A DNA stretch of 64,000 nucleotides from Acidimicrobiia bacterium (GCA_041572755.1 JBFFRY010000007.1:29928-93927), one strand, 5' to 3'; shown: positions 1-62,415, counted from the stretch's first letter. Numbers and translations are program-made. The notes: a model not told the origin generated them from the sequence alone.

Positions 1-1016
1 GATGCTCCGGGCTCGGGTCGAGGCAGCAGCCCGGCTCCATCGACGATAGGGCGGACCGCCTCCTCCCATTCGATGGCCATCACGTGGACGCCGGCGACGC
101 CTTCGATCTGCCGAATCTCGTTGATGAGGTCGATGCAGATCCGGATCCCTTCTTCCTTCCAGGCGGCGGTCCGGGCCTTCTTGTCCTCGGGGGTCAGCTC
201 GTCCTTGGACTTGCCGGCCCACTCCGCCCCGGCCTTCGTCATCCGGTCGATCAGGGGGTCGGGAACCAGGAGACCGGGGACGTTGTTCACCATGTAGCGG
301 GCCATACCGGGGCTCTTGAGCGGCCCCACCCCGGCCAGGATGTAGGCCTTTTCGTGGAGGCCCATTTCCCTCACCTTCTCCATGTAACCGGCAAAGGCGG
401 CAACGTCGTAGATGAGCTGGGTCTGGATGAAGTTGGCTCCGGCGGCCACTTTCTTGGCCAGCCGCATGGGGCGGTACTCGACCGGGTCGGCGAACGGGGC
501 GGCGGCTGCTCCGACGAAGAAGCGGGGCTCGGCGCCCTCGAACTCCTCACCGCACTGGAACACTTTGTCGTCGCGCATGGACGCCACCATCTGCACCAGC
601 TGGATGGAGTCGATGTCGAAGACGTTCTTGGCGGTCGGGTGATTCCCGAACTGCTGGTGGTCTCCGGTGAGGCACAGCAGGTTCTTCATGCCCAGGGCGT
701 GGGCGCCGAGCAGGTCTGCCTGGATGGCGAGCCTGTTGCGATCCCGGCAGGTCATCTGGATGACCGGCTCCAATCCCTCGTCGACCACGATGGTGCCGGC
801 GCCGATGCTCGACATCCGCACGATGGCGGTCTGGTTGTCGGTGATGTTGACGGCGTCGCACGTGCCCTTGAGGAGGCCGGCTTTCTCCCGGATCACCGCC
901 CCGTCGGCACTCTGGGGCGGCCCCAGTTCGGCGGTGACCGCGAAGTGGCCTCCTCGCAGCAAGCGCTCGAGCTGCGATCCGGCGAGTTCTCCGTTGGTGG
1001 GGGCTTCGGTGACCAT
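1..1016 (-). CDS. metF: Methylenetetrahydrofolate reductase MetF (start at 1016, C-terminal end runs off window start)
   Basis: Manual minus-strand translation from ATG 1016..1014 gives MVTEAPTNGELAGSQLERLLRGGHFAVTAELGPP...QMTCRDRNRLAIQADLLGAHALGMKNLLCLTGD. This is the MTHFR-family HLTC..D / L.GD core (compare E. coli HLTCIDAT...ALRGD). The metV-like gene sits immediately upstream, separated by 3 nt. The ORF track does not list it because it is open at the window edge. Confidence 0.75.
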   Translation of the reverse strand, partial: MVTEAPTNGELAGSQLERLLRGGHFAVTAELGPPQSADGAVIREKAGLLKGTCDAVNITDNQTAIVRMSSIGAGTIVVDEGLEPVIQMTCRDRNRLAIQADLLGAHALGMKNLLCLTGDHQQFGNHPTAKNVFDIDSIQLVQMVASMRDDKVFQCGEEFEGAEPRFFVGAAAAPFADPVEYRPMRLAKKVAAGANFIQTQLIYDVAAFAGYMEKVREMGLHEKAYILAGVGPLKSPGMARYMVNNVPGLLVPDPLIDRMTKAGAEWAGKSKDELTPEDKKARTAAWKEEGIRICIDLINEIRQIEGVAGVHVMAIEWEEAVRPIVDGAGLLPRPEPGA

Positions 1017-1019
1017 GAT

Positions 1020-1703
1020 CTACTCCTGCTCCGCGGCGATCCGGAGGTCGTCTCGGATGATGCGGCGGGGTCCGCCGTGGCGGGCCGCCTTCCAGTTCTT
1101 CGGTGGCTGCGGGTTCACGAGGATCTCGGTCCGACCGACGCTCGAGAGCCGGTCGTGGATCAACTGCCAGGCGCACGGCGTGGCCGGATCGACCTCGCAG
1201 TGGCCGTCCTCCGATCCACCGCACGGCCCGTTGAGCAGCGATTTGGCACACCGGGCGATGGGACAGATCCCGGCTGTGATCCCGAGGATGCACTCCCCGC
1301 AGGCGGCGCAGCGTTCCTCCCACAGCCCCTGCTCGGAGGGCATGCCCAGGAACGAAGTGTCGAGGCCGGGCACCACCCAGGCGTCGGGGAAGCGCTCCAC
1401 CATCGCCTGGACCCCTATCCCGCACGCCAGGGACACCACGACGTCGGCGTCGAGGATCCCTTCTCGCTGCTCGTCGAGGAACTCCCATTCGCACTGTCGC
1501 TGGATGTTGGTGTCGGTGATCGTCTTGGCAGCCCCGTCGAGCTTGGTCGACATGCGCAGCGAGGCGGCCAGGGTCTCCGCCTCCCGGGCGCCGCCGGCGA
1601 AGCAGATGGTGACGCACGTGCCGCATCCCGCCACGAGCACCTTCTCCGCATCGCCGACGAGACCCTTGATCTCCTCCAGCGGTTTCTGCTCGGCGATGAT
1701 CAT
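1020..1703 (-). CDS. metV: MetV-like MTHFR-associated Cys-rich (zinc-ribbon/FeS) small subunit
   Basis: Track ORF 1020..1760 with start trimmed to MIIAEQKPLEEIKG (ATG 1703..1701, by ORF arithmetic). It has the many Cys motifs (CGTC..C, CAACGEC, CPIARC, LLNGPCGG, GHCEVD) typical of the MetF C-terminal-like domain / MetV. Its start overlaps the mvhD-like stop by about 5 nt. Confidence 0.65.
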   Translation of the reverse strand: MIIAEQKPLEEIKGLVGDAEKVLVAGCGTCVTICFAGGAREAETLAASLRMSTKLDGAAKTITDTNIQRQCEWEFLDEQREGILDADVVVSLACGIGVQAMVERFPDAWVVPGLDTSFLGMPSEQGLWEERCAACGECILGITAGICPIARCAKSLLNGPCGGSEDGHCEVDPATPCAWQLIHDRLSSVGRTEILVNPQPPKNWKAARHGGPRRIIRDDLRIAAEQE

Positions 1704-1707
1704 CGGC

Positions 1708-2136
1708 TCACCCTCCTCCGCTCTCGGCGCCACGAAGTGGGTTGGGCCCCATCTCCGCAATCCGCTCGGTCATGTCGGTGGCGGCGGCGACGAACTCCGC
1801 CGCCATGGCGGCCGACATGTTGAACATCTCGACCCGTTCCCGTTCCAAGCCGATCTCGGCGAGCAGGTCCTGCACGCGTGCGATCCTCTTCCTGGCCTTC
1901 ACATTACCTTCCAGGTAATGGCAATCACCGGGCAGTCACCCGGCCGCCATGACGCCGTCCACGCCCTCCTCGAAAGCGAGGAGCACGGTCAGCACATCGA
2001 TGCGGCCGGTGCACGGCACCTCGACGACCTTCACCGCCGAGGGGTACTGCATGCGCAGGCCCCCGGCCAGATCGGCGGCCGCATAGGCACAGTGCTCACA
2101 GCAATAGGCCACGATGTTCAACTGGTCGTCGCTCAT
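1708..2136 (-). CDS. mvhD: MvhD-like [2Fe-2S] electron-transfer subunit with in-frame UGA (putative selenocysteine) at 1938..1936
   Basis: Track ORFs 1936..2136 (MSDDQLNIVAYCCEHCAYAAADLAGGLRMQYPSAVKVVEVPCTGRIDVLTVLLAFEEGVDGVMAAG*) and 1708..1902 (GTG-start ...KARKRIARVQDLLAEIGLERERVEMFNMSAAMAAEFVAAATDMTERIAEMGPNP) are in the same frame. The intervening codons read LPGDCHYLEGN. The joined product matches MvhD end to end (YCCxxCAY...RMQYP...EGADGVMVAGC-HPGDCHYxxGNxKARRRI...LGIEPERLRLEWIS). The TGA sits exactly at the conserved Cys of the AGC-HPGDCHY motif. ATGA overlap with the hdrL-like stop (2133..2136). Confidence 0.65.
1902..1920 (-). other. SECIS-like stem-loop 15 nt 3' of the in-frame UGA (mRNA sense 5'-CAUUACC UGGAA GGUAAUG-3')
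   Basis: Perfect 7-bp stem with a 5-nt loop, read directly from the sequence. Its position, about 15 nt after UGA, is in the range of bacterial SECIS elements. Confidence 0.45.
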
Positions 2137-5100
2137 CGAGATGGCGCTCCTATCGAGTCCAGAGGTATGAAGCCTTCAGGGGCGTGACCGACCAGGGCGG
2201 CCACCTTGGCGGTGGCCTGGGAGTCGGTGTAGTGCATCAACTGGATGGCGTGGCCCGGGCACTCCGCCACGCAAACCCCGCACCCACGACAGATGGCGGC
2301 CTCGATGGTGGCCGCCCCGAGGATGCCACCGATGCCGGGCTGACTCGCATCGATCCGGGGCACGCCGAAGGGGCACACCCGCACGCAGGTCAGGCATCCG
2401 GTGCACAACTCGTGGTCGACCACCGCAACCTGCCCACCGGCCAGCAGCGTGTCCTTGCTGAGAACCCGGGCGGCTCTGGCGGCCGCGGCCTGAGCCTGGA
2501 TCATCGTCTCGTCCGACAGCTTCGGGTAGTGGGCCATCCCGGCCATGAACACCCCGGCGGAGGAGAAGTCGACCGGCCGCAGCTTGACGTGCGCCTCCAA
2601 GAAGAAGCCGTCGGCGTCGATGCTGCATTTGAAGAAGTTGGCCAGTTCGTCGCTGTCGTCGCGGGGCACGACCGGCATGCTCAGCACCACCAGATCGGGC
2701 TCGAGCTCCATGGCCCGATCGAGGATCGGATCTCGGGCCCGCACCTGCAGCGATCCGTTGGCTTCCACCACCGGCTTCTCGTCCGGGTCGTAGTGGACGA
2801 AGAGCACGCCCTTGGACCGCGCCTCGGTGTAGGACCGCTCCTTGAACCCGTACACCCGAATGTCGCGATAGAGCACCACCACCTGGGCGTCGGGCTTGCG
2901 CTCCTTGAGCGCCAGGGCGTTCTTGAGCGCGATCGTGCAGCAGATGCGGCTGCAGTACTGCTCGGCCGGACCGACACATTGGATCATCACGACCGAATCG
3001 GGGACGTCACCGGCTTCGAGGCGCTGCTCGAACTCCTGCTGGGTGACGATGCGGGGGTCGGTGCCGTAGCCGTACTCCGGCCCCCGGTACTCCCGGCCAC
3101 CGGTGGCGAGGATCGTCACCCCGTGATCAATCGAGACGCGGGCGCCGTCGGCCTTCTCCACGGTGCTCGTGAAATTGCCCATGAACCCCGAGGAACCGAC
3201 CACCCGGCTCCCGAGATGGATGTCGACCAGCGGGTTTCGCTCGACGCGGCCGGACAGTTCGGCGAGGAGATGCTGGGGCTGCTTGCCCTGGAACGGCATC
3301 CGCACCCTGCCGAGGTTGCCGCCGAGCGTCTCCTCGCGTTCGACCAGGTCGACCGGGTAGCCCTGGTCGGCAAGAGAAGCTGCAGCGGTCATGCCGGCGA
3401 CCCCGCCGCCCACGACCAGCGCCCGTTTCGTGACCGGGACCTCGAAGGTGTGTTGCGGTTCCAACAGGGCCGCCCGGGCCACGGCCATGCGCACCAGGTC
3501 CCGTGCCTTGGCGGTGGCGGCCTCGTTGTCGTCGGAGTGCACCCACGAGCACTGATTGCGGATGTTGGCCATCTCGAAGAGGTACGGATTGAGGCCGGCA
3601 CTGCGCAGCATGTCACGGAAGAGCGGGCCGTGGGTCAGCGGGGTGCAACTGGCGACGACCACCCGGTTGAGCTGCTGCTCCTGGACCTGTTCGGCGATGT
3701 GCTTCACGCTGTCCTGCGAGCAGGTGTAGAGGTTGGCCTCCGCATAGGCCACCCCGGGCAGATCCCCGGCGTATTCGGCCACGTCGGGGACATCCAGGTA
3801 CCCGCCGATGTTCGACCCGCAGTGGCACACGAACACGCCGATCCGCAGGGCCTCATCGGTGATGTCCCGTTCGTCCGGGAAGCTGGGGTCGGTGGTGAGA
3901 GAGAAGCGAGATTCGCCGAGTCGGGTGGCGGCGGCGGCCGCCGCCCCGCTCGCCTCGATGACCGACTCGGGGATGTCCTTGGGCTCCCGGAAGGGCCCGA
4001 CGGCGTAGATGCCGGGCTTGCTGCTCTCGAGCGGGTTGAACTGGGCGGTGTGGCAGAAGCCGTACTCGTCGAGCTCGATGCCGAGGCGGGTGCCGAGCTC
4101 CTTCACCGAATCGGAGATCTCCATGCCGACCGACAGCACCACCAGGTCGAAGGGCTCCTCGTGGAGCCGGCCGGCCTCGTCGTTGTAGCGGACCAACAGA
4201 TCCTTGGTCGCCGGATCCTCCCGCAGTCCGCTGATCCGGCACCGGGTGTACTCCACGCCGTAGCGATCCCGGGCCCGCTCGAAATAGCTCCAGTAGCCCT
4301 TGGAGAACGCCCGCATGTCCATCATGAACACCTGGATGTCGAGGTCGGGCTCGTGCTCCTTGGCCATGATCGCTTCCTTGGTGGCATACATGCAGCACAC
4401 CGCCGAGCAGTAGTCCCGGGTCTGGTCGCGTGACCCGATGCACTGGAGGAAGGCGACCCGTTTCGGCTTCTCATGATCGGACGGCCGGACGACGTGGCCG
4501 GTGGTCGGTCCCGAGGCCGACAGCAGGCGTTCGAACTGCAGAGCCGTGATCACGTTGGGGTAGCGACCGAGCCCGTACTCCTCGGCGAGCTCGGCCTTGT
4601 AGATCTGGTAGCCGGGAGCCAGGATCACCGCACCGACATCGATCTCGGAGACCGTGGCGATCATGTCGTGGTCGACGGCGTTGACCCCGCAGGCAAAGGC
4701 ACAGCTCATGCACTCCGAGCACACTCCGCAGGCCAGGCATCGGGAGGCTTCGGCCCGGGCCGATTCGTCGTCGTAGCCCCGCTCGATCTCGGCAAATGAG
4801 TGAATCCTCTCGAGCACCGGCAACTCGGGGAGCGGCACCCGGGGGCGGCGCTCGATGCGGCCCGAGGCCACTCGCCGCGCCAGCTCCTCGTCGGTGGGTC
4901 GCGCCACCGGGACTTCGGGTGGCGGTGGCGGCTCGAGATCCTCCCCCTGCAGGTAGCGGATGAGTGAGGCCGCCGCCTTGTGGCCGCTGTCGACGGCTTC
5001 GATGACGAACGAAGTGCCGGAGACGCTGTCTCCGGCGGCGAACACCCCTGGGCGGCTGGCGGCCAGGGTGTGAGGATCGATGGAGATCGTGTTCTGCCTG

Positions 5101-6665
5101 GTGACACCGACCCCGGCATCGTCGGGGATGAACGCCAGGCCCGCTCGCTGACCCACCGAGAAGATCACCGTGTCGCACTCGAGCACGTGCAGGGAGTCGT
5201 CCACCGTGGTGACCGAGAGGCGTCCGTCGTCCCCGAAGCTGAAGGAGGCGACTCGCCGGCACTCCACGGCGGTCACGTTGCCCTCGTCATCGCTCAGGAT
5301 CTGCTCGAACGTCCTCCCGGGGTGGACGGTGATCCCCTCGGCCTCGGCGGCTTCGATCTCCCAGGGGTGGGCCGGCATCTCGTCGCGGCCCTCCAGGCAG
5401 GCCATGTGGACGTCGCGACCCAGCCGCACCGCACTGCGGGCCACGTCGATCGCCACGTTGCCGCCACCGAGCACCAGCACCTTCTCACCGAGAGGCGGCA
5501 CGTCGGCATCGGCCTCGTCGTCGTAGTGGCCCAGCCGCATGTCCCGCAGGAATCGGGTGTTGATGAGAACCCCGGGGAGGTCGGCACCGGGGATGGGGAG
5601 GCGGATGCCTTCGTGAGCGCCGACGGCGATGAGGATCGCGTCGTGCCCCGCTTCGAAGAGGTCATCGAGGTTGTCGACGGTGTGATTCAGTTCGAGCCGA
5701 ACACCCAGGTCGACGATGTCCCGGACTTCACGTTCCACGACCTCGCTGGGCAGCCGAAACTCGGGCACGCCGAGGCGGAGCATGCCGCCGGCCACCGGCA
5801 TCGATTCGTACACCGTGACCGCATAGCCGGCCATGGCGAGGTCCTGAGCGGCGGTGAGGCCACACGGCCCGGCTCCGATGATGGCGATGCTCTCGTCGTG
5901 GATGCGGGGCACCGGCTCGACCGGTCGGCGGGGCTCGGCGTAGACCTTGTCGGTGACGAAGCGCTTCAGCGCCCGAATGTTGATCGGCTCGTCGACCCGC
6001 CCCCGGGTGCAGGCGATCTCGCAGCGGTGGTTGCAGATCCGCCCGCAGATGCCGGGGAAGGGGTTGTCGAGCTTGATGACCCGCATGGCGTCGTCGTAGC
6101 GGCCCTCGCCGATGAGCGCGATGTAGCCCTGGGCCCGCTGCCCGGCCGGGCAGGCATCCCGGCATGGGGCCACGCCGAGCTTCTCGATGGCGAAAGCGTT
6201 GGGTACCGCCTGCGGATACAGCTTGAAGGCGGCCCGCCGGTGAGCGAGGCCCTCGTTGAACTCGTCGGGGATCACGATCGGGCAGACGGTGGCGCAATCG
6301 CCGCAGGCGATGCAGACGTCGGTGTCGATGTAGCGGGGGTGGTGCTTCACCTCGACGGTGTAGTTGCCGACCTCGCCGACGATGTCGAGGACCTCGCTGT
6401 CGGTGAGCAGCTCGATGTTGGGGTGGCGGCCGGTCTCCACCAGCTTGGGGGAGATCGTGCACATGGCACAGTCGTTGGTGGGGAAGGTCTTGTCGAGCTG
6501 GGCCATCTTTCCGCCGATGGCCGACTGCGACTCGACCAGATAGACCTTGAAGCCCTGATCGGCGAGATCGAGAGACGCCTGCATGCCGGCGATGCCCCCG
6601 CCGACCACCATCACGGCGCCGGTCGGTTCGCCGTTCATCGACCCCATGTGCCGGAAACCATCCAT
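2133..6665 (-). CDS. Giant HdrA-family flavin/FeS fusion protein (HdrL-like): HdrA module interrupted by a GltD/NfnB-like NAD(P)H-FAD module, a second HdrA module, and a C-terminal 2x[4Fe-4S] ferredoxin
   Basis: Track ORF 2133..6719, 1528 aa in the track and about 1510 aa from the trimmed start. Start trimmed to MDGFRHMGSMNGE (ATG 6665, preceded by GAGGGGG).
- N-terminus: VMVVGGGIAGMQASLDLADQGFKVYLVESQSAIGGKMAQLDKTFPTNDCAMCTISPKL, the HdrA FAD site.
- GltD-like insert: CRDACPAGQRAQGYI...NPFPGICGRICNHRCEIAC, then IAIIGAGPCGLTAAQDLAMAG and VLVLGGGNVAIDVAR.
- HdrA signature CIGSRDQTRDYCSAVCCMYATKEA.
- Second module RALVVGGGVAGMTAAASLADQG...CVGPAEQYCSRICCTIALKNA.
- C-terminal CTGCLTCVRVCP...CRGCGVCVAECP. 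Confidence 0.75.
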   Translation of the reverse strand: MDGFRHMGSMNGEPTGAVMVVGGGIAGMQASLDLADQGFKVYLVESQSAIGGKMAQLDKTFPTNDCAMCTISPKLVETGRHPNIELLTDSEVLDIVGEVGNYTVEVKHHPRYIDTDVCIACGDCATVCPIVIPDEFNEGLAHRRAAFKLYPQAVPNAFAIEKLGVAPCRDACPAGQRAQGYIALIGEGRYDDAMRVIKLDNPFPGICGRICNHRCEIACTRGRVDEPINIRALKRFVTDKVYAEPRRPVEPVPRIHDESIAIIGAGPCGLTAAQDLAMAGYAVTVYESMPVAGGMLRLGVPEFRLPSEVVEREVRDIVDLGVRLELNHTVDNLDDLFEAGHDAILIAVGAHEGIRLPIPGADLPGVLINTRFLRDMRLGHYDDEADADVPPLGEKVLVLGGGNVAIDVARSAVRLGRDVHMACLEGRDEMPAHPWEIEAAEAEGITVHPGRTFEQILSDDEGNVTAVECRRVASFSFGDDGRLSVTTVDDSLHVLECDTVIFSVGQRAGLAFIPDDAGVGVTRQNTISIDPHTLAASRPGVFAAGDSVSGTSFVIEAVDSGHKAAASLIRYLQGEDLEPPPPPEVPVARPTDEELARRVASGRIERRPRVPLPELPVLERIHSFAEIERGYDDESARAEASRCLACGVCSECMSCAFACGVNAVDHDMIATVSEIDVGAVILAPGYQIYKAELAEEYGLGRYPNVITALQFERLLSASGPTTGHVVRPSDHEKPKRVAFLQCIGSRDQTRDYCSAVCCMYATKEAIMAKEHEPDLDIQVFMMDMRAFSKGYWSYFERARDRYGVEYTRCRISGLREDPATKDLLVRYNDEAGRLHEEPFDLVVLSVGMEISDSVKELGTRLGIELDEYGFCHTAQFNPLESSKPGIYAVGPFREPKDIPESVIEASGAAAAAATRLGESRFSLTTDPSFPDERDITDEALRIGVFVCHCGSNIGGYLDVPDVAEYAGDLPGVAYAEANLYTCSQDSVKHIAEQVQEQQLNRVVVASCTPLTHGPLFRDMLRSAGLNPYLFEMANIRNQCSWVHSDDNEAATAKARDLVRMAVARAALLEPQHTFEVPVTKRALVVGGGVAGMTAAASLADQGYPVDLVEREETLGGNLGRVRMPFQGKQPQHLLAELSGRVERNPLVDIHLGSRVVGSSGFMGNFTSTVEKADGARVSIDHGVTILATGGREYRGPEYGYGTDPRIVTQQEFEQRLEAGDVPDSVVMIQCVGPAEQYCSRICCTIALKNALALKERKPDAQVVVLYRDIRVYGFKERSYTEARSKGVLFVHYDPDEKPVVEANGSLQVRARDPILDRAMELEPDLVVLSMPVVPRDDSDELANFFKCSIDADGFFLEAHVKLRPVDFSSAGVFMAGMAHYPKLSDETMIQAQAAAARAARVLSKDTLLAGGQVAVVDHELCTGCLTCVRVCPFGVPRIDASQPGIGGILGAATIEAAICRGCGVCVAECPGHAIQLMHYTDSQATAKVAALVGHAPEGFIPLDSIGAPSR

Positions 6666-6764
6666 CCCCCTCGGTTGATCTCGGGGATATTGTCGCCCGG
6701 AACGACCACTCCCCCCCACGGGCTTTCGGCCCTATTGGGACCGCCGTCCGGCGGCGAATCGGGT

Positions 6765-8426
6765 CTAGCGGGTCACCGCACCGTGTTCGGCCGAGCCGAC
6801 CAGCCTGGCGTACTTCGCCAGGGCACCGGTGGGGTAGCGGGGCGGAGGCGGCTCCCATCCGGCCCGGCGTCGCTGCAGAGTCGCTTCGTCGACGAGCAGG
6901 TCGACGCGACGCTGCGGGATGTCGATGCGGATGGGGTCACCGTCCTCGATCAGGGCCATCGATGCTCCGTCGGCGGCCTCCGGCGCCACGTGGCCGATGC
7001 ACAACCCGGTGGTGCCTCCGGAGAACCGGCCGTCGGTGATGAGCGCCACCGAGCCGCCGAGACCCGAACCCCGGATGGCGGCGGTGATCGCCAGCATCTC
7101 CCGCATCCCCGGGCCGCCCCGGGGTCCCTCGTAGCGGATGACCACCACATCCCCGGCGGCGAGGTCGCCGCGATGCAGGGCCTCCAAGGCCCCCTGCTCG
7201 GCATCGAAGACCCGGGCGGGGCCCTCGAAGAGGGTTTCGGAGAGTCCGGCGATCTTCACGACGGCCCCGTTGGGGGCGAGCGATCCCCGCAGGATGGCGA
7301 TGCCCCCTTCGGGTGCCAGCGGATCATCCAGGGAGTGGACCACGTCCTGGCCGGCGGTGAAGGAGGCTCCCTCTAGGTTCTCGGCCATCGTCTTTCCGGT
7401 CACCGTCGGCACGTCGCCGTGGATTCGGCCGTCGTCGAGGAGGGCCCGCAGAACCGCCGGCACGCCACCGGCCTTGTGGAGGTCCACCATGTGATAGCGG
7501 CCGTAGGGGCTCATGTCGCCCAGGTGGGGGGTTCGACGGGCGATGCGGTCGAAGTCCTCCAGGCCCAGCTCGACCTCGGCCTCCCGAGCGATGGCGAGCA
7601 GGTGGAGGACACCGTTGGTGGATCCGCCCAGCGCCATCAGCAGGGTGATGGCGTTCTCGAAGGCCTCCCTGGTGAGGATCTGCCGGGGCCGAGTTCCCGT
7701 TTCGAGGAGGCCCATCACAGCCTCGCCGGAACGGACGGCGAACTCGTCGAGAGCCGGATCGGCAGCCGGCACCGCGGCGCTGCCGGGCAGCGACATCCCC
7801 AGCGCCTCACCGATCGAGGCCATGGTGTTGGCGGTGAACATCCCGGCGCAAGAACCCACCCCGGGGCAGGCCATCCGCTCCAGTTCGAGGAGCTCCCGCT
7901 CGGTCATGTTCCCCTGGGATGCGGCACCAATCCCTTCGAAGACGTCCACGATCGAAACGTCGCGCCCTCGCCATCGGCCCGGCAGGCTGGAGCCCCCGTA
8001 CAGGAAGACCGAAGGGAGGTCGGTTCTGGCGGCCGCCATCAGCATGCCCGGCAGCGACTTGTCGCAACCGGCGATGGTGACCATGGCGTCGAACCGCTCG
8101 GCATGCATGACCAGCTCCACCGAATCCGCGATGACCTCGCGGGACACGAGGGAGGCCCGCATCCCTTCGTGACCCATCGAGATCCCATCGGAGACGGCGA
8201 TCGTGGTGAACTCGAGACCGACGCCGCCGGCGGCGCTGACGCCGGTCTTGGCGGCCTTGGCCAGCCGGGGCCCGCTGACGTTGCACGGGGTGACCTCGTT
8301 GCCGGCCGAGACCACGCCCACTTGGGGCTTCTGGAAGTCGTCGTCGTCGAGGCCCACGGCCCGCAGCATCGCCCGTGCGCCGGCCGCCCGGGGCCATCTC
8401 GTGACGTCGTCGGAATGGATCTTCAT
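6765..8426 (-). CDS. ilvD: Dihydroxy-acid dehydratase
   Basis: 553 aa. [25 protein letters not shown]...[16 protein letters not shown]...; typical IlvD/Edd family length and motifs. Confidence 0.9.
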
Positions 8427-8501
8427 CCGGGCATCCTACGTGGCCGTCCCGCCACGCGATCGGCGAGATCGCTCAAGGGGCGGGGCACCGGGCGCCGATG
8501 G

Positions 8502-8530
8502 TTGACAACCTGCGGCACCCCCGCCATACT
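8502..8530 (+). promoter_or_regulatory. Sigma70-like promoter for the ilvB leader (-35 TTGACA 8502-8507, 17-nt spacer, -10 CATACT 8525-8530)
   Basis: Read directly from the sequence. The spacing is ideal, and the predicted TSS lies a few nt before the leader ATG at 8543. Confidence 0.4.
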
Positions 8531-8542
8531 GCCGCTCCACAC

Positions 8543-8584
8543 ATGAGCCCGTTCAACGCGACCCTGGTAATTATTCTCGTGTAG
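8543..8584 (+). CDS. ilvB leader peptide MSPFNATLVIILV* (six consecutive Leu/Val/Ile codons)
   Basis: atg agc ccg ttc aac gcg acc ctg gta att att ctc gtg tag, located between the promoter and the attenuator hairpins upstream of ilvB. Confidence 0.5.
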   Translation: MSPFNATLVIILV

Positions 8585-8613
8585 CGCACGTGCCACATAA
8601 CGCGCGTGCGCAA

Positions 8614-8642
8614 CCCTCCAGCCCCCGGCCGGAGGGTTTTTT
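8614..8642 (+). terminator. Attenuator / intrinsic terminator: GC-rich hairpin CCCTCCAGCCCCCGGCCGGAGGG followed by TTTTTT, 27 nt upstream of the ilvB start
   Basis: The only strong hairpin-plus-U-tract in the window. It is preceded by a second hairpin GCGCACG...CGTGCGC (8584..8611) that overlaps the leader stop codon. Confidence 0.55.
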
Positions 8643-8668
8643 CATCCCCGGACCCAACGGAGAAGAAG

Positions 8669-10384
8669 ATGAGCAGCCACACCGGAGCCCAAGCAGTCGT
8701 ACGGGCCCTCGAACGCGAGGGTGCCGAGGTCGCGTTCGGAGTCCCCGGTGGCGCGATCCTCCCCGCCTACGACTCGATGGTCGACAGTTCCCTTCGTCAC
8801 GTCCTGGCTCGCCACGAGCAGGGAGCCGGCCACATGGCGGAGGGTTATGCCCATGCCACCGGCCGCGTCGGTGTGACGATCGCCACGTCGGGACCGGGGG
8901 CCACCAACCTGATCACTCCGCTCCAGGACGCCCTGATGGACTCCATCCCGATCGTGGCGATCACCGGCCAGGTGGCGGCGACGGCGATGGGCAACGATGC
9001 CTTCCAGGAAGCCGACACCAGCGGTCTGGCGATGCATTGCACCAAGCACTCGTACTTGGTCACCGATCCCGACGACATCGCCGACGTCGTTCACGAGGCG
9101 TTCTACCTGGCTTCATCGGGGCGGCCGGGCCCGGTGCTCATCGACATTCCCAAGGACGTGCTGACCGCCCGGACGTCCCGGACCACGCCGGGGGAGTCCA
9201 CTCTGCCCGGGTATCGGCCGGCCGGGGCGGGTCATCCGCTCCAGGTGCGCCGGGCCGTCGACATGCTGATGGAGGCGGAGCGCCCCGTCCTCTACGTCGG
9301 GGGCGGGGTCATCAAGGCCAACGCCCATGCCGAGCTCCTGCAGCTCGCCGAGGCCGTTCAGGCGCCGGTGGTGACCACGCTGATGGCGCGCGGGGCCTTC
9401 CCCGATGATCACCCGCTGGCGCTGGGGATGTCGGGGATGCACGGCACCTATGCCGCCACCACGGCGATGCAGAAGGCCGATCTCCTGTTCACCCTCGGGG
9501 CCCGGTTCGACGATCGGGTAACCGGCGATCCCGACGCCTTCGCTCCGTACGCCAAGGTGGTGCACGTCGACGTCGACCCGGCCGAGATCGGCAAGGTCCG
9601 TCACGCCGATGTGCCCATCGTGGGCGACGTCGGGGCGGTGCTCGGCCAGATAGTGGCCGAGGTGGGTCGCCGCCCCCGCCGGGAACCCGCTCCCGCCCGC
9701 CGGGACTGGCTGGAGACGGTGGGCGGCTGGCAGCGGACCCACCCACTCAACTACCACCAGGATCCGGGCGGCCCGCTCAAGCCGCAGTACGTGATCGAGG
9801 AGCTCCACGCCGCCACCGGCGGTGATGCGATCGTGGTGACAGGCGTCGGTCAGCATCAGATGTGGACCTCCCAGTTCTGGCGGTTCAAGCGCCCTCGGTC
9901 GTGGATCAACTCGGGTGGTCTCGGCACCATGGGCTTCGCCATCCCGGCGGCGATCGGCGCCAAGGTGGGCCGGCCGGACGAGCTCGTGTATGCGATCGAT
10001 GGTGACGGCTGCTTCCAGATGACCCAGCAGGAGCTCACCACCGCCTCCACCCACGGCATCCCGATCAAGGTGGCCGTCCTCAACAACGGCGGGCTCGGCA
10101 TGGTGCGGCAGTGGCAGAACCTGTTCTACGACCGCCGCTTCCACGCCACCGACCTCACCGACCACACCCCCGACTACGTCAAGTTGGCCGAGGCGATGGG
10201 TTGCGTCGGGCTCAGGGCCGAAACGCCCGACGAGGTGGCCCCCGTCATCGAGAAGTCGCTTCACATCGACGACCGTCCGGTGGTCGTGGAGTTCCGCATC
10301 GATCCCGACGAGATGTGCTTCCCCATGGTCGTGTCGGGTGGCAGCAACGACGTGATCGCCATGGGCCCGGAGGATCTGGCATGA
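8669..10384 (+). CDS. ilvB: Acetolactate synthase large subunit
   Basis: Track ORF 8606..10384 trimmed to [35 protein letters not shown]. ThDP-enzyme motifs are present. ATGA overlap with ilvN. Confidence 0.9.
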
Positions 10385-10869
10385 AGCACACCCTGTCGCT
10401 GCTCGTCGAAGACAAAGCGGGCGTGCTGGCGCGGGTGTCGGCGCTGTGTGCCCGACGAGCGATCAACATCCACTCCCTGGCGGTGGGACCCACGCATGAG
10501 ATTGGCCGTTCCCGGGTCACGCTCGTCGTCGACGCCGATCAGGTCGAGCAGGCCACGAAACAGCTCCACAAGCTGGTCAACGTCATCAAGATCAGCGAGC
10601 TGGCGTCGGAGGAGTCCGTGGAGCGGGAGATCATGCTGCTGCGGGTCAACGGTGCCGCCCGGCGCAGTGAGGTGCTCGACCAGGCGGCGCCGTTCGGCGC
10701 CGAGGTGGTCGACGCGTCGTCGTCGTCGGTGGCCTTCCAGGTCGTCGGCCACCCGCGCCACCTGGCCGCGTTTCTCGACGCCATGCGTCCCTTCGGAGTG
10801 ATCGACCTGGTCAAGTCAGGCCGTATCGCCATGCCGCGCGACGTTGCCGCCAACGGAACCAAGGAGTGA
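10381..10869 (+). CDS. ilvN: Acetolactate synthase small (regulatory) subunit
   Basis: [38 protein letters not shown]..., an ACT-domain small subunit of about 162 aa. Its start overlaps the ilvB stop (ATGA). Confidence 0.85.
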
Positions 10870-10879
10870 GGAGAGCCCG

Positions 10880-11887
10880 ATGACCGTGCCCATCTACTAC
10901 GACGCAGACGCTGATCTCTCGCTGGTCAGGTCGCGCAAGGTGGCCGTGCTCGGCTACGGGAGCCAGGGCCACGCCCACGCGCTGAACCTGCGCGACTCGG
11001 GGGTCGACGTCGTCATCGGGCTCAGGGAGGGTTCACGCTCCTGGGTGAAGGCCGAGTCCGAGGGCCTGCGGGTCGTGTCGCCGGAGCAGGCGGTGGCGGC
11101 GGCCGACTTGATCATGGTCCTGGTGCCCGATCAACACCAGGAGAAGCTCTACGCCGACTCGATCGCCCCCAACCTCGAGGCGGGCGATGCGCTGTTCTTC
11201 GCTCACGGGTTCACCATCCACTACGGCCAGATCACGCCTCCGGCCGACGTGGACGTGGCCATGGTGGCCCCCAAGGGTCCGGGTCACCTGGTGCGGCGGA
11301 CCTTCGAAGCGGGCAGCGGAGTGCCTTCTCTCCTGGCGGTGCACCAGGATGCTTCCGGGTCGGCCCATGGCCTGGCCTTGTCCTACGCCTCGGCCATCGG
11401 TGCCGGACGAGCCGGCGTGCTGGAGACCACGTTCCGGGAGGAGACCGAAACCGATCTCTTCGGGGAGCAGGCCATCCTGTGCGGGGGCGTGAGCGAACTG
11501 GTGAAGGCCTCTTTCGACACGCTCGTCGAAGCGGGCTACGCCCCCGAGTCGGCCTACTTCGAGTGCCTCCACGAGCTGAAGCTGATCGTCGACCTCTTCT
11601 ACGAGGGCGGTCTGGCGTGGATGCGCCACTCGGTGTCGGACACGGCCGAGTACGGGGATCTCACCCGGGGTCCCCGCATCGTGACCGAGGAGACCCGCAA
11701 GACGATGCGCAAGATCCTCGACGATGTCCAGTCGGGGGCCTTCGCCGAGGAATGGATCGCCGAGAACCGCAAGGGCGCCCCCCTTCTCCAGGAGCTGCGC
11801 GCCCGCGACCGTGAGCACCCCATCGAGTCCGTCGGTGCCCGGCTCCGTTCCATGATGCCCTTCATCGATCCGAAGGCACCCGAATGA
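10880..11887 (+). CDS. ilvC: Ketol-acid reductoisomerase
   Basis: [55 protein letters not shown] at 10861. Confidence 0.9.
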
Positions 11888-12186
11888 TCTCTCCGAGGTC
11901 TCGGGTGGCGGCCCGGGAGCTGACGATCGAGTACCGCGATCAGGAGTACCCGTTGGTGGTGCGTTGCTTCGAGTCGGCCCGCGCCGCCCTCGGGGTCGAC
12001 GCCTCTCTCGCCGGCTACGACGTGCGGAGAATCGACCTGGATGGAAGCCCGATGGCCGACGTGCGGGCCACCGTCCGGGCCAACGGCATGGCCTTCGTAG
12101 GGAGGGGGATGGCTGCGGATCTCGCCGAGAGCGCCTCCCGGGCCGTGGGGGCCGCGCTCGACGAGGCCCGGAAGGGAGCCCCTTAG
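11884..12186 (+). CDS. Small stand-alone LeuA-C-terminal-like (LeuA_dimer/regulatory domain) protein
   Basis: 100 aa. ...[51 protein letters not shown] resembles the LeuA allosteric domain (..GEVTVRL..DGR...G.GADTDIV.ASAKAYL.AL). ATGA overlap with the ilvC stop, and its stop abuts the leuB ATG. Confidence 0.45.
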
Positions 12187-13218
12187 ATGCGAGTGGCGGT
12201 CATCCCCGGTGATGGGACGGGTCCCGAGGTGGTCGCCGAGGCCCTGAAGGTGCTCGAAGCCGCCGACCGGGCGTTCGACCTCAAGCTGGAGTTCGAGCGC
12301 TACGACCTCGGCGGCGAGCGGTATCTCAGAACCGGGGAGACCCTGCCGCCGCCCGTCCTCGACGAGCTGCGCCACGTGGATGCGATCCTGTTCGGGGCGA
12401 TCGGGCATCCCGAGGTCAAGCCGGGGATCCTCGAGCGGGGGATCATCCTCCGCCTTCGCCGGGAGATGAACCAGTACATCAACTTGCGGCCGGTCCGGCT
12501 GCTCCCCGGGGTGACCACGCCGCTGCGCGGCAAGGGACCGGAGAGCATCGACATGGTGATCGTTCGGGAGAACCTCGAAGGCCTCTATGTGGGCGCCGGG
12601 GGCTTCACCGAGCAGGGAACCCCCCGTGAAGTCGCGCTTCAGACGTCGGTGAACACGCGGTTCGTCGTCGAGCGGTGTATCCGATTCGCCTTTGGCCTCG
12701 CCGCCGGGCGGACCCGGCGCAAGGTCACCTTCTGCGGGAAGACCAACGTGCTCACCTACGCCCACGACCTGTGGGATCGGGTGTTCGAGGAGGTGGCGGA
12801 CGACTTCCCCGATGTGGAAGCCGACTACGCCAACGTGGACGCCGTCTGCGTGTGGATGATCGAAAGCCCGGAGCGCTTCGACGTCATCGTCACCGACAAC
12901 ATGTTCGGCGACATCATCACCGATCTGGGCGCCGCCATCCAGGGAGGCATGGGAATGGCCGCCGGTGCCAACCTGAACCCCGAAGGCGTCTCGATGTTCG
13001 AGCCGATCGGGGGCACCGCCCCCGACCTGGTCGGAACCGGTCGGGTGAACCCGATCGCCGCCATCCGGGCGGCCGCCATGCTGCTCGAACACACCGGCCA
13101 TCCCGACGCCGCGGCCGCGGTCGATCGCTCTTCGGCTGAGGTGGCCGGGGAGTCTGCCGCCTTGCCCACCGTCGAGGTGGGCGACCGCGTGGCGCAGCTG
13201 GTGGGGACGGGCCCATGA
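12187..13218 (+). CDS. leuB: 3-isopropylmalate dehydrogenase
   Basis: [26 protein letters not shown]...; IDH/IMDH family. Confidence 0.9.
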
Positions 13219-14660
13219 CGGTGACCCGGCCCGACCGCCCGCCGACCTCCACGACCGGGGCTCGGACGCTGCTCGACAAGATCTGGGAGGCCCACGTGGT
13301 GGAGCGGGCCGAGGGCCGTCCCGACCTGCTCTACGTCGATCTCCATCTCGTCCACGAGGTGACCTCTCCGCAGGCCTTCGCCGGGTTGGCGGCGGCCGGC
13401 CGTTCGGTTCGTCGCCCCGACCTGACGCTCGCCACCGTCGATCACGCCGCTCCCACCCTGGATCGAGCGGCCGGTATCGCCGATCCGGTTTCCCGCAAGC
13501 AGGCAGAGACGCTGGCCGAGAACTGCCGGTCTGCCGGGGTCCCGCTCTATGCCCTCGACGACGCCCGCCAAGGCATCGTCCACGTCATCGGGCCGGAGCA
13601 GGGTCTGACCCAGCCGGGTATGACCATCGTGTGCGGCGACAGCCACACGTCGACCCACGGAGCGTTCGGTGCCCTCGCGTTCGGGATCGGGACCTCGGAG
13701 GTCGAGCACGTGCTCGCCACCCAGACCCTGCCCCAGCGCAAGCCCCGCACGACGTCGGTGACCGTCGACGGCGAGTTGGGTGCCGGGGTCACGGCCAAGG
13801 ACGTCATCCTCGGCATCATCGCCCGGATCGGTGTCGGGGCAGGGGCCGGACACATCGTCGAGTACCGGGGCAGCGCCATCCGGGCCCTCTCGATGGAGGG
13901 GCGGATGACGGTGTGCAACATGTCCATCGAGGCCGGTTTTCGAGCCGGGATGATCGCTCCCGACGACACCACCTTTGGCTACCTGGAGGGAAGGGCCCAC
14001 GCCCCCAAGGGCCAGGCGTGGGAGGAGGCGCTGGAGTACTGGCGCTCGCTGCCCTCCGACGAGGGTGCCGGCTTCGACGTCGGGTTCGAGGTCCCGGCCG
14101 CAGAACTCGAACCGTTCGTGAGCTGGGGCACCAACCCGGCCCAGACCGTGCCGATCACCGGGGTGGTTCCCTCGCCCGACGACTACGCCGACCCGCTGGA
14201 GCGGGAAGCGTGCGCCCGAGCCCTGGCCTACATGGATCTGGAGCCGGGGACACCGATGACCGAGATTCCCATCGATCGGGTCTTCGTGGGGTCCTGCACC
14301 AACGCCAGGATCGAGGATCTTCGTGCCGCCGCCGCGGTCGTCGCCGGCCGGACCGTGCACCCCGGGATCAGTGCCATGGTGGTTCCCGGATCCGGTCTGG
14401 TGAAGGCGCAGGCGGAGCAGGAGGGACTCGATCGGGTGTTCCGCGATGCCGGGTTCGAGTGGCGGGACGCCGGATGCTCTCTGTGTATCGCCATGAACGG
14501 TGACGAGGTGGCCTCCGGTGAGCGATGCGCCTCGACCTCCAACCGCAACTTCGAGGGACGGCAGGGGAGGGGATCCCGAACCCACCTGGTCAGTCCGGCG
14601 ATGGCGGCGGCGGCCGCCCTCGAAGGCCACTTCGTCGACGTTCGGGAGGTGACGGGCTGA
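13215..14660 (+). CDS. leuC: 3-isopropylmalate dehydratase large subunit
   Basis: 481 aa aconitase-family protein. ...[31 protein letters not shown]... Confidence 0.9.
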
Positions 14661-15283
14661 TGGAGCCGGTCACCACCATCCGGGGGCCGATGGCGCCGCT
14701 GATGCGGACCAATGTGGACACCGACCAGATCATCCCCACCGAGTTCCTCAAGCGCACCGAGAGGACCGGGTTCGGCGCCTTCCTGTTCTGGGACTGGGCC
14801 CACCGCGACGACGGCAGTCCCGATCCGTCGTTCGTGCTCAACCGCGAGGAGTACCGCAACGCCGCCGTGCTGGTCACCGGACCCAACTTCGGGTCGGGGT
14901 CGTCGCGAGAGCACGCCCCCTGGGCGCTCCAGGACTGGGGGTTTCGGGCCATCGTCGCCCCGTCGTTCGCCGACATCTTCCTGGCGAACTGTCACAAGAT
15001 CGGCTTGTTGCCGGTGGCGCTCCATGCCGCCGAGGTGGAGGCACTGGGCGATCTCGCCACCACCGACCCGACCGCCGAAGTCACCATCGATCTCGAGGCG
15101 CAGACGGTCGTGGCACCTGGTCTCGAGGCTGCCTTCGACATCGACCCGGCCGTGAAGTGGGGCTTGCAGCGGGGTCTCGATGAGGTCGGCCTCACCCTGC
15201 AGGGCCTGACCGCGATCGAAGCTTTCGAATCGACTCGTCCCCGGTTCAAGCCGGTATTGACCACACATGAACAGGAACGGTGA
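14660..15283 (+). CDS. leuD: 3-isopropylmalate dehydratase small subunit
   Basis: [26 protein letters not shown]... TGATG overlap with leuC. Confidence 0.9.
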   Translation: MEPVTTIRGPMAPLMRTNVDTDQIIPTEFLKRTERTGFGAFLFWDWAHRDDGSPDPSFVLNREEYRNAAVLVTGPNFGSGSSREHAPWALQDWGFRAIVAPSFADIFLANCHKIGLLPVALHAAEVEALGDLATTDPTAEVTIDLEAQTVVAPGLEAAFDIDPAVKWGLQRGLDEVGLTLQGLTAIEAFESTRPRFKPVLTTHEQER

Positions 15284-16200
15284 TCCCGATGATCGAATCC
15301 AAATACGTGTGGAGTGACGGGGAGCTGATCGCGTGGGAAGACGCGACGGTTCACGTGCTCTCCCACGCCTTGCACTACGGCAGCGGTGTCTTCGAGGGCA
15401 TCCGGGCCTACGACACGACGGACGGCACAGCGGTCTTTCGGATGCGGGAGCACTACGAGCGCCTGCATCGTTCGGCTGCGGCGTACGGGATGCCGATGCG
15501 TTGGACCGTCGGCGAGCTGGAGGTCGCCACCAAGGAGGTGCTGGCCTCCAACGAGTTGAAGAGCGGGTATGTGCGCCCCATCGTCTTCTACGAGCTCGGA
15601 GCGATAGGGCTCGACCCCCGCAATGCTCGGGTCAGGACGATGATCGCCACGTGGCAGTGGGGCAAGTACCTGGGTGAGGACGGTGTCATCAACGGCATCC
15701 GGCTGATGACGTCGTCCTGGCGGAGGTTCCCGTCGGCTTCGTTCCCCAACGCCAAGGCCACCGGCACCTACATCAACAGCATCCTCGCCAAGCGGGAGGC
15801 GTTGCAGGCCGGCTACGACGAAGCCCTGATGCTGGACGTCGACGGGCGAGTCTCGGAGGGAAGCGGAGAGAACCTGTTCCTGGTGGCGGACGGCAAGGTC
15901 TCGACCCCTTCACTCGACTCCGGGTGCCTCGACGGCATCACGCGCGACACGGTCATGAAGCTCCTGCGGGATCAGGGCTATGAGGTCACCGAAGCCGAGA
16001 TCGCCCCCGAGCAACTCTGCGAGGCCGACGAGCTCTTCCTGACCGGCACCGCCGCCGAGGTGACCCCGGTGCGTGAGGTCGATGACTGCCGGATCGCGAA
16101 CGGCAAGCCGGGCGAGGTCACTCGGCTGACGCAGCGGCTCTTCGAGGAGACGGTGACCGGGAGGCTCCTCGAGTACCGCGATTGGCTGGCCTACGTGTAG
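15280..16200 (+). CDS. ilvE: Branched-chain amino acid aminotransferase (GTG 15280 or ATG 15289)
   Basis: ...GELIAWEDATVHVLSHALHYGSGVFEGIRAY...; PLP fold-type IV. Confidence 0.85.
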   Translation: MIPMIESKYVWSDGELIAWEDATVHVLSHALHYGSGVFEGIRAYDTTDGTAVFRMREHYERLHRSAAAYGMPMRWTVGELEVATKEVLASNELKSGYVRPIVFYELGAIGLDPRNARVRTMIATWQWGKYLGEDGVINGIRLMTSSWRRFPSASFPNAKATGTYINSILAKREALQAGYDEALMLDVDGRVSEGSGENLFLVADGKVSTPSLDSGCLDGITRDTVMKLLRDQGYEVTEAEIAPEQLCEADELFLTGTAAEVTPVREVDDCRIANGKPGEVTRLTQRLFEETVTGRLLEYRDWLAYV

Positions 16201-16251
16201 GGAGGGCTCCCCACGTCCCGGGCCGGGCCGCCGTCGCAGGAGATCGGCGTA

Positions 16252-19375: not shown

Positions 19376-19900
19376 TCAGCCGGCGAATGTCAGGGTGAGG
19401 TGGTAGCCGGTCAGCACCAAGAAGCCCCCGAGCAGCAGTAGTGAGGCCTCGAGCACCCGACGGTAGCGACGCAGCGTCCACAAACCCATCGCAACCGCCC
19501 CGACCAGGGTCAGCTTGAAGACGGCGGCCACCACCGGATCGAAGCCCAGCAGCTCGGCCATCACCGGGTTGAGTTCGGTGGCTCCGAGACCGAGGGCCCG
19601 TACGGTGAGCAGCAGATCCACGGCATTGAGGAGCACCACCGCTCCGAGGACCGCGGCCACGGCGCCGGGACGATCCCGGTAGTTGATCAGCAGCCGGGCG
19701 CCGGCCGCGCGGATCGGTCCGGGCCCGGCGAGGCGGCGGTCGAAGCCGCTTCTCCGCTCCGGATAGTGCAGGGAGGCCCGCCGCACTCGGCGGTCCGCCA
19801 CGCGTCGGTTCTCGATGGTGCTCTCCACCGACTCCTCCACTACGGAGGGTAGCCGATCAGTATCCCTCAGTCGTCGTGGCGGGTCGGAGGGGATCGCCAC
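19376..19900 (-). CDS. Hypothetical membrane protein (Arg-rich cytoplasmic N-terminus plus about 4 TM helices)
   Basis: 174 aa. ...LLINYRDRPGAVAAVLGAVVLLNAVDLLLTV... Confidence 0.4.
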   Translation of the reverse strand: MAIPSDPPRRLRDTDRLPSVVEESVESTIENRRVADRRVRRASLHYPERRSGFDRRLAGPGPIRAAGARLLINYRDRPGAVAAVLGAVVLLNAVDLLLTVRALGLGATELNPVMAELLGFDPVVAAVFKLTLVGAVAMGLWTLRRYRRVLEASLLLLGGFLVLTGYHLTLTFAG

Positions 19901-20026
19901 CGAGTCCGCTCCGGGTCGACGGGTGGTGCGGCGCTTGCCGTCGCGGGCGCCGAGGGTCGCCTCGTCCCTCTCCTCCCCGGCACTGACCCGGGACGCAACG
20001 GGGCGGTCCCGCTATGCTGCCCGGCT

Positions 20027-22579: not shown

Positions 22580-22638
22580 TCGGGGGCCGGTCGCTCCCTG
22601 CATAGACTCGCGGCCTCGGGTGCAGGAAGAGAGGCGGC

Positions 22639-30029: not shown

Positions 30030-30171
30030 GAAGGTGGAGCATAGGAAGCCTGGCCTTCGTTTTCAGCGTCCTCGGGCGAGGGATGCGGGGGGCATTCCGA
30101 TCCGACGCGGCAATCTGGGTATGACGCGCCCCCTCATTGGACGGTGGACGACCGATGGGGCGAAGCGTTCC

Positions 30172-38191: not shown

Positions 38192-38280
38192 GGATTCTCC
38201 CTTGCGGCCGCCACGGGGCGGCGACTCTCAACCTCTCAGCGTGGTGAGACTACCACTCTGCGTGGTCGATGCCAAGGGGA

Positions 38281-50253: not shown

Positions 50254-50370
50254 CCGGGTTCCGGTGGTGGCGGGGCGCCTGCCACCGGGGCGAGCTGCAC
50301 CGTCCGACTGCCGGTCCGTGCCCGGGGCGGTCGGTAGGGTGGTGAGCCGCCGACGTCGGTTTGGAGGCCC

Positions 50371-51147: not shown

Positions 51148-51248
51148 AGATCGGGTCGAAAGACCCTCCGAACCGTCCGGGGCCCATGAGTAGCCTTCCC
51201 CCTGATGGTGGACAGGATCTGTCGACGCCCGATCTTGCGGGCGCGCCT

Positions 51249-62375: not shown

Positions 62376-62415
62376 CGGCCGGGTAGCCTTCCCGCCGAGC
62401 AGGAAGGCATGAAGG

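Follow-up and report, generated by a model that had tools for sequence, protein, structure and literature searches.

Can a methylenetetrahydrofolate reductase (MTHFR) of the MetFV type be fed by NAD(P)H through a single giant flavoprotein, with no HdrB and HdrC subunits? The question is raised by the left end (positions 1–6665) of a 64-kb stretch of DNA with ~69% GC (Acidimicrobiia bacterium, GCA_041572755.1 JBFFRY010000007.1:29928-93927; hereafter the window). An original prediction, made from the sequence alone, read this end as an HdrB/HdrC-free MTHFR operon. The analysis presented here gives a different answer. The locus is very probably a five-gene operon, hdrA-mvhD-metV-metF-hdrCB, for the Hdr-type (also 'Moorella-type' or type IV) MTHFR of a high-GC Chloroflexota, and the host genome is probably Anaerolineae-like. 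Operons of this kind are already known from acetogens, and the present one is an ordinary copy with another gene order and a fused HdrCB. A predicted selenocysteine (Sec) in MvhD, together with its selenocysteine insertion sequence (SECIS) and a public gene call that is split there, is a modest but real addition. The operon and the gap before it are laid out as follows.

6666–6764, minus strand: ilvD-hdrA intergenic region, 99 nt, with a GAGGGGG Shine-Dalgarno-like run right before the hdrA ATG
2133–6665, minus strand: hdrA, large 'HdrL-type' HdrA, 1510 aa (Pfam, NCBIfam and PDB matches; ATG start as in the identical database protein P0001, 1510 aa)
1708–2136, minus strand: mvhD, [2Fe-2S] subunit of the FlpD/MvhD family (PF02662), 142 aa with UGA read as Sec (U67); its start overlaps the hdrA stop (ATGA)
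1020–1703, minus strand: metV, MTHFR C-terminal-like Fe-S/zinc subunit, 227 aa (PF12225, E=1e-35); begins 4 nt past the mvhD stop
1–1016, minus strand: metF, methylene-tetrahydrofolate (THF) reductase catalytic subunit (PF02219, E=2e-35), 338 of 340 codons inside the window
Just beyond the left window edge (L001:16669–18033), minus strand: hdrCB, fifth operon gene, HdrC+HdrB fusion, 454 aa; ATGA overlap with the metF stop

Four co-directional minus-strand genes fill window 1–6665, all with the codon-position GC pattern of real genes (third-position GC content, GC3, ~0.88). The hdrA/mvhD junction is an ATGA overlap, and gaps of 4 and 3 nt separate mvhD from metV and metV from metF. The tight coupling of four genes that had been described is borne out, including the overlap and the 3-nt gap; the junction given as about 5 nt is a 4-nt gap. 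Also as described, the operon is co-directional with ilvD (6765–8426, minus strand), which ends 99 nt upstream. Scans for consensus promoters and terminators, applied to the ilvD-hdrA gap and to the stretch past hdrCB, returned nothing, such consensus being uninformative for a 69% GC Chloroflexota, and an Rfam search of the whole window, including the gap, gave no match.

Where, then, are HdrB and HdrC? They appeared to be absent because the window ends two codons short of the end of metF. Look-up of the protein identical to the 1510-aa HdrA led to a JGI metagenome contig, L001, which matches window 1–16696 with 99.97% identity over about 16.7 kb and runs on past window coordinate 1. There, the full 340-aa metF (15650–16672) includes the last two codons and stop that lie beyond the window edge, and hdrCB starts in the overlap with that stop. 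The claim that the HdrB/HdrC arm is missing is therefore withdrawn, and the search for adjacent hdrBC that had been proposed as a check has yielded the gene that completes the canonical complex. By Pfam, HdrCB consists of Fer4_17/Fer4_8 and two CCG domains. Its N-terminal part is HdrC (PDB HdrC matches over residues 9–111; CxxCxxCxxxC motifs at 28 and 72), and its C-terminal part is HdrB (PDB 5odc_B over residues 184–449, E=1e-27), with both CCG motifs intact (C189..C221C222..C258xxC261 and C318..C358C359..C394xxC397). A species-level genome scan, from which 80 related loci were kept, nearly all with a near-full-length HdrA homologue, shows metF to be followed immediately by a fused hdrCB-like gene in about 15 of the 80 (12 full-length and 3 partial by tblastn), mostly in Chloroflexota. 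Planctomycetota and Lentisphaerota have separate hdrC and hdrB genes between mvhD and metV, and in Moorellaceae both genes lie upstream of hdrA.

Is the giant protein itself new? Its anatomy had been read correctly: Pfam, NCBIfam and PDB comparisons (HdrA chain 5odc_A, plus NfnB/GltD chains) recover two HdrA FAD modules, each with its CC signature (CCMYATKEA at 757–765 and CCTIALKNA at 1242–1250), and a GltD/NfnB-like module inside the first. In detail, residues 18–162 match HdrA of Methanothermococcus thermolithotrophicus at 147–290, comprising the beginning of the thioredoxin reductase (TrxR)-like FAD domain and the initial half of the ferredoxin domain inserted into it, and residues 649–922 resume the same protein at 293–571. 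Residues ~165–667 between them form a complete GltD/NfnB-type module with Fer4_20, two [4Fe-4S] clusters and binding sites for FAD and NAD(P)H (Pfam, NCBIfam, PDB). The GltD/NfnB-like module thus splits the inserted ferredoxin domain of TrxR-like FAD module 1 (~18–162 and ~649–922). A domain of the HdrA N-terminal type (~939–1095), the second TrxR-like FAD module (~1080–1400) and a C-terminal ferredoxin domain with two [4Fe-4S] clusters (1421–1469) complete the chain. GxGxxG/A motifs at residues 22, 264, 400 and 1086 give four dinucleotide-binding motifs, i.e. three FAD and one NAD(P)H, and CxxCxxCxxxC motifs stand at 118, 649, 1421 and 1459. By direct alignment, E712/K763 is the counterpart of the E356/K409 'bifurcation' pair of M. 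thermolithotrophicus HdrA; E1213/K1248 forms a second such pair by motif correspondence, its residues being invariant in 12 homologues.

This architecture is not a replacement of HdrA, as had been supposed, but that of HdrA in a characterised enzyme. In Moorella thermoacetica, HdrA itself is 162.8 kDa (~1487 aa), and a GltD domain interrupts its extra N-terminal TrxR-like domain; its C-terminal half is without the inserted ferredoxin domain, and E/K pairs occur in both TrxR modules (Kremp et al., PMC9430772). HdrA of Moorellaceae bacterium AZ2 (L035) is 48% identical to the window protein and collinear with it over the full length, in a single BLASTP alignment running from residue 11 to ~1488 over 1518 columns. 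In the suggested comparison with HdrL of sulfate reducers, Desulfobacterales homologues align over the full length at 44–48% identity, several of them in hdrL-mvhD-metV-metF clusters. One and the same architecture goes by the names 'HdrL' and 'large Moorella-type HdrA'. What holds of the functional assignment made earlier is the coupling of MetFV to MvhD and to a flavoprotein resembling HdrA that contains its own GltD/NfnB-type FAD/NAD(P)H module.

Which nucleotide would the module use? In the alignments, the strand that follows the second Rossmann motif has Y-R-R at its end in NADPH-dependent NfnB/GltD chains, and C-L-E there in the window HdrA; Moorellaceae HdrA has C-L-E-S at this site. An acidic residue at the 2'-phosphate site is typical of NADH-binding folds. 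Because Y-R-R is replaced by C-L-E at the site of the NADPH 2'-phosphate, NADH is favoured over NADPH as the predicted substrate, in line with the NADH:benzyl-viologen activity measured for the Moorella enzyme.

The feature that the original prediction had not noticed is an in-frame UGA in mvhD, followed by a candidate hairpin.

1936–1938, minus strand: in-frame UGA, predicted Sec codon (U67), in the motif AAG-U-LPGDCHY
1903–1919, minus strand: predicted SECIS hairpin, 6-bp stem AUUACC/GGUAAU with loop UGGAA (minimum free energy fold)

The gene is identified as mvhD by PF02662 (E=8e-47 over residues 8–130), by NF045873 (VhuD) and by MvhD/VhuD chains in the PDB (E down to 8.5e-40), and the predicted Sec-bearing peptide reads AAG-U-LPGDCHYLEGNVK. 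Among 102 mvhD matches in the related loci, the codon at the U67 position is a stop in 43, every one of them TGA, and encodes Cys in 59. The SECIS-like stem begins 19 nt from the U of the UGA, i.e. 16 nt past the end of the codon, and lies inside the coding sequence. Archaeal and bacterial SECIS elements differ in kind and placement. No Rfam family matches the mvhD hairpin, and the fold of the post-UGA region, taken as a single sequence, is no better than that of shuffles (z = −0.13). The evidence for a SECIS is for this reason comparative. All six stem pairs are complete in 43/43 UGA-type mvhD genes, as opposed to 1/59 of the Cys type, and it is on this difference that we read the mvhD UGA as a predicted Sec codon with a SECIS. 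Within the UGA-type set, 100% of the stem cells are paired, and in three sequences one A-U pair is replaced by U-A, a compensatory change. Moreover, the stem forces U-ending codons for His, Gly and Asn despite a GC3 of 0.88, and in the Cys-type genes these codon positions are free to vary. Finally, in the solved archaeal VhuD chain 9sfi_K the residue aligned with U67 is an X, which we read as Sec.

MvhD/VhuD is a recognised selenoprotein family (PMC13188914; PMC2702500), and a 2026 review confines Sec-MvhD to sulfate reducers and methanogens (PMC13188914). In our set, mvhD has the UGA and the SECIS-like stem in many copies from Anaerolineae and Desulfobacterota. A public gene call is split at this point: in the JGI record, mvhD (L001:14530–14958, window 1708–2136) is broken at the UGA into FlpD fragments of 66 and 64 aa, so that the predicted selenoprotein is mis-annotated in at least that record. 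The sole Cys-type mvhD that keeps the full SECIS-like stem (CAUUACCUUGAGGGUAAU) is found in a Lentisphaerota metagenome-assembled genome (MAG; L077:12443–12835), and it may be a recent Sec-to-Cys replacement.

By homology and analogy with the M. thermoacetica enzyme, the complex may work as follows. NADH would be oxidised at the GltD-like FAD/NAD(P)H module inside HdrA, and the electrons would reach an HdrA flavin along an Fe-S chain; the E/K pair that goes with bifurcating HdrA flavins is retained in both TrxR-like modules. A first branch would lead through HdrC/HdrB and/or MvhD to MetV and on to the MetF flavin, where methylene-THF would be reduced to methyl-THF. On a second branch, electrons could pass the ferredoxin domain at the C-terminus and reach an acceptor of low potential, ferredoxin or a similar carrier. 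With a different metabolism of the host, the enzyme might also run in reverse and oxidise methyl-THF.

The large GltD-containing HdrA is widespread, at least 80 species-level genomes across several phyla having a full-length homologue. More than 120 clusters of full-length homologues at 67–82% identity were found in the protein database, mostly labelled Anaerolineae/Chloroflexota, and the 80 loci come from Chloroflexota, Moorellaceae, Symbiobacterium, Desulfobacterota, Planctomycetota, Lentisphaerota, SAR324 and others. In nearly all of the 80, mvhD follows hdrA, and in roughly half metV-metF follow as well. The order hdrA(L)-mvhD-metV-metF, with the HdrB/C genes variously placed, recurs in Chloroflexota, Planctomycetota, Lentisphaerota, Desulfobacterota and Symbiobacterium. 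Among MAGs of the class Anaerolineae, clusters occur in Thermoflexus, Aggregatilineales and Promineifilaceae, for example. In the relatives examined, an hdrA/mvhD-like gene stands upstream of the large hdrA where the window has ilvD (ilvD itself was not searched there). In many Anaerolineae, the gene directly upstream of the large hdrA is an additional hdrA-like one whose MvhD-like domain is of the Cys type (ACPIGNCHH), and in some two large hdrA(L)-mvhD pairs stand in tandem (loci L002–L005, L008, L011, L029, L030; L012, L022–L025, L033). One locus binned as 'Actinomycetota bacterium' (L014; VGBK01000091.1) encodes a large HdrA 76% identical to that of the window, closer than most Anaerolineae matches, which suggests a mis-binned Chloroflexota contig.

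What might the enzyme do in this host? The other genes of one-carbon (C1) metabolism in the window bear on this point; they are listed with the molybdoprotein gene ahead of them.

19853–22579: molybdoprotein resembling xanthine dehydrogenase (XDH) and aldehyde oxidase, with a [2Fe-2S] domain
22606–23511: MeTr-like gene (Pterin_bind), following the XDH-like gene
23346–25475: RACo corrinoid activator
25472–30062, minus strand: first molybdopterin formate dehydrogenase (FDH)-like set, with a NuoE-NuoF fusion partner
50338–56220, plus strand: second molybdopterin FDH-like set, with fdhD at 50338–51147, FDH-like and NuoF-like genes at 51740–56220, and a catalytic subunit with a NuoG-type extension at its N-terminus

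The MeTr-like gene, RACo and the two FDH-like sets lie 16–50 kb from the operon, with unrelated genes between. The stretch at 6.7–16.2 kb has ilvD and a divergent ilvBNC-leuBCD-ilvE cluster. (The single structural difference between the window and L001, an indel of ~30 bp at window ~10277–10310 and L001 ~6387–6389, falls in or near an ilv-cluster gene of 551 aa for which Pfam gave no match, probably ilvB.) The two ORFs scanned immediately flanking the 19853–25475 region have no B12-binding domain. Neither FDH-like catalytic ORF contains an in-frame stop, and neither is for this reason taken to be a Sec enzyme, though MvhD of the same genome appears to use Sec. An in-frame stop at 40655/40656 had also been considered as the mark of a Sec-FDH, and the junction proved to separate a penicillin-amidase gene from a PyrK-like gene. 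Likewise, the ORFs at 60726–62375 and 62413–63222, considered as Fhs and FolD, are an RTX-repeat protein and a protein without a Pfam match. RTX calcium-binding nonapeptide-repeat proteins are in fact encoded twice, at 36422–38227 (minus strand) and at 60726–62375 (plus strand), one of them also having a reprolysin-like metallopeptidase domain. The 'nearly complete methyl-branch C1 toolkit' proposed for this region is therefore an overstatement: the MeTr-like gene, RACo and the two FDH-like sets are there, but they are not contiguous, and no fhs or folD was found among the window ORFs scanned. It had also been said that CODH/ACS (carbon monoxide dehydrogenase/acetyl-CoA synthase) is not in view, and none was found among those ORFs.

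Having proposed a five-gene operon for the known Hdr-type enzyme, working by NADH oxidation and bifurcation, we would note the points that weigh against it. First, hdrCB was observed on the near-identical contig, outside the window itself. Second, the call of NADH rather than NADPH is based on a single motif. Third, no Sec machinery (selABCD, tRNA-Sec) was seen within the 64-kb window, in which ARAGORN found no tRNA. Fourth, fhs, folD, the corrinoid iron-sulfur protein and CODH/ACS have no match among the ORFs scanned in the 64-kb window, so that either physiological direction may apply. Fifth, as far as the accounts in PMC5861303 and PMC9430772 go, neither NADH-dependent reduction of methylene-THF nor the second acceptor was ever demonstrated for M. 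thermoacetica; six proteins co-purified (Mock et al. 2014, via the same two sources), and the activities these sources report as measured are NADH:benzyl viologen and reduced-benzyl-viologen:methylene-THF only.

The alternative that survives best accepts the enzyme and reverses its direction. The complex would take methyl-THF produced by corrinoid-dependent demethylation, oxidise it to methylene-THF and reduce NAD+ by confurcation, in the service of methyl-group catabolism in non-acetogenic Anaerolineae rather than of CO2 fixation. The MeTr-like gene, RACo and the two NAD-linked FDH-like sets, the lack of CODH/ACS, the corrinoid iron-sulfur protein, fhs and folD among the scanned ORFs, and the homologous clusters in many Anaerolineae-class MAGs would all be in keeping with it. 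However, a 64-kb window is too small to infer that CODH/ACS is absent, the C1 genes are remote from the operon, and marine Anaerolineae with the cluster carry a full Wood-Ljungdahl pathway (PMC5736913). We consider this oxidative role possible, though the odds are against it. A broader proposal can be built on the same genes, namely that the Hdr-type MTHFR is Sec-dependent across many Anaerolineae, with Sec in place of a conserved Cys in the [2Fe-2S] domain of MvhD, and that in non-acetogenic members it is methyl-oxidising (confurcating) and acts with MeTr/RACo and NAD-linked FDH genes. Taken as a whole, this proposal is speculative and rather unlikely; if true, the Sec-dependent Anaerolineae MTHFR would extend Sec-MvhD beyond the sulfate reducers and methanogens named in the review (PMC13188914).

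A further alternative keeps the complex with all its subunits and questions the bifurcation. The enzyme would then be a plain NADH:methylene-THF oxidoreductase, its Hdr/MvhD subunits serving just as wiring for electrons, or the terminal module of a membrane- or quinone-linked chain as for Sporomusa ovata. No Hdr-type MTHFR has ever been shown to bifurcate; in S. ovata, the Hdr/MvhD/MetVF proteins are in part associated with the membrane, and a model linking them to quinone has been proposed (PMC9430772); and electron transfer from NADH to methylene-THF is exergonic by itself (E0' −320 vs −200 mV; PMC5861303, PMC9430772). Nevertheless, the E/K pair is retained in both TrxR-like modules, and the full HdrC/HdrB apparatus and the C-terminal ferredoxin domain are kept, which exceeds the needs of a simple wire. 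On balance we hold a non-bifurcating enzyme to be improbable.

The two remaining alternatives can be dealt with briefly, each being very improbable. That hdrA(L)-mvhD is a generic NADH-oxidising module which stands beside metVF by coincidence might be argued from about 30/80 loci (those having several kb of downstream flank) with hdrL-mvhD and no nearby metVF, and from HdrL-MvhD pairs beside other partners (PMC2702500; PMC5947623), such as dsrABC in Desulfobacterium autotrophicum, for which a role of this kind has been proposed, but all junctions here are translationally coupled, the order hdrA-mvhD-metV-metF is found in at least five phyla, and the six Moorella proteins co-purified. As for the enzyme first predicted, in which a novel giant HdrL replaces HdrA and NAD(P)H feeds MetFV directly without an HdrBC arm, neither hdrB nor hdrC is visible inside the window and tblastn gave no HdrB in several Desulfobacterales hdrL-mvhD-metV-metF loci, but the fused hdrCB overlaps the metF stop on L001 and follows metF in about 15 relatives, the 'giant' protein shares the architecture of the characterised HdrA, and the one Desulfobacterales locus examined (L046) has divergent HdrC-like and CCG-domain genes after metF. 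The correction is thus that the locus encodes no new HdrBC-free, NAD(P)H-fed MTHFR, but the known Moorella-type enzyme with another gene order and a fused HdrCB.

How does the window operon compare with the known systems? The closest characterised one is MetFV-HdrABC-MvhD of M. thermoacetica, with which it shares the same six protein modules and the large HdrA of ~1490 aa, including the GltD-interrupted extra TrxR-like domain, a second module without the inserted ferredoxin domain, three sites for FAD and a single one for NAD(P)H, and E/K pairs in both modules. Identities to the Moorellaceae homologues are 54% for MvhD, 54% for MetV, 57% for MetF and ~40% for HdrB/HdrC. Several differences are found, however. 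First, the order is hdrA-mvhD-metV-metF-hdrCB, as opposed to hdrC-hdrB-hdrA-mvhD-metV-metF in Moorella. Second, HdrC and HdrB are fused here into a single 454-aa protein. Third, acsE is not adjacent to the operon, whereas the Moorellaceae AZ2 locus reads acsE-like, hdrC, hdrB, hdrA, mvhD, metV, metF. Fourth, MvhD is predicted to carry Sec here and has Cys in Moorellaceae. Other MTHFR types were considered and set aside, namely RnfC2-MetFV (type III, Acetobacterium woodii) and MetFV only (type II; types per PMC9430772), as the operon has hdrA, mvhD and hdrCB and no RnfC-like gene. The PDB copy searched contained no MetFV-type complex. The Hdr-type MTHFR of S. ovata is similar in that its cluster reads metVF-hdrCBA-mvhD and its HdrA has two TrxR-like modules; its HdrA, of 101 kDa, has neither the extra ferredoxin domain nor the GltD/NAD(P)H module (PMC9430772), both of which the window HdrA possesses.

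Among sulfate reducers, HdrL of D. autotrophicum is a fusion of the HdrA/glutamate-synthase type with mvhD next to it (Strittmatter et al. 2009, PMC2702500; for other Desulfobacterota, PMC5947623). The window protein is likewise an HdrA domain fused to an NAD(P)H-binding domain resembling the glutamate synthase small subunit, and mvhD is immediately downstream here too. In L046, the one Desulfobacterales locus that was translated, HdrL has an in-frame stop (TNDCAM*I), which is the known CxxU Sec site of HdrA; it would thus carry Sec at TNDCAM-U, where the window HdrA has Cys69. After metF, the same locus encodes a response regulator, a divergent HdrC-like protein of 242 aa and a single-CCG protein of 160 aa, which tblastn had missed (the stop and these genes lie at 7989–8420 and 14702–16474); these HdrB/C-like genes are divergent and separate, unlike those of the window operon. 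Archaeal VhuD/MvhD (PDB 9sfi, chain K) belongs to the same FlpD fold family, its X, read as Sec, aligning with the predicted Sec67. A second X (Sec) in VhuD stands where the window MvhD has Cys16, and the partner here is an MTHFR, not a hydrogenase.

Similar by description are the published clusters of marine Anaerolineae (DscP3, An-B22 and SM23 bins; Sewell et al. 2017, PMC5736913), which comprise hdrABC-mvhD-metVF and in which hdrC and hdrB form a translational fusion. That account differs from ours in that it does not mention selenocysteine in MvhD. As described there (PMC5736913), these clusters are like the window operon in phylum and class, in their Moorella-like MTHFR and in the fused hdrCB.

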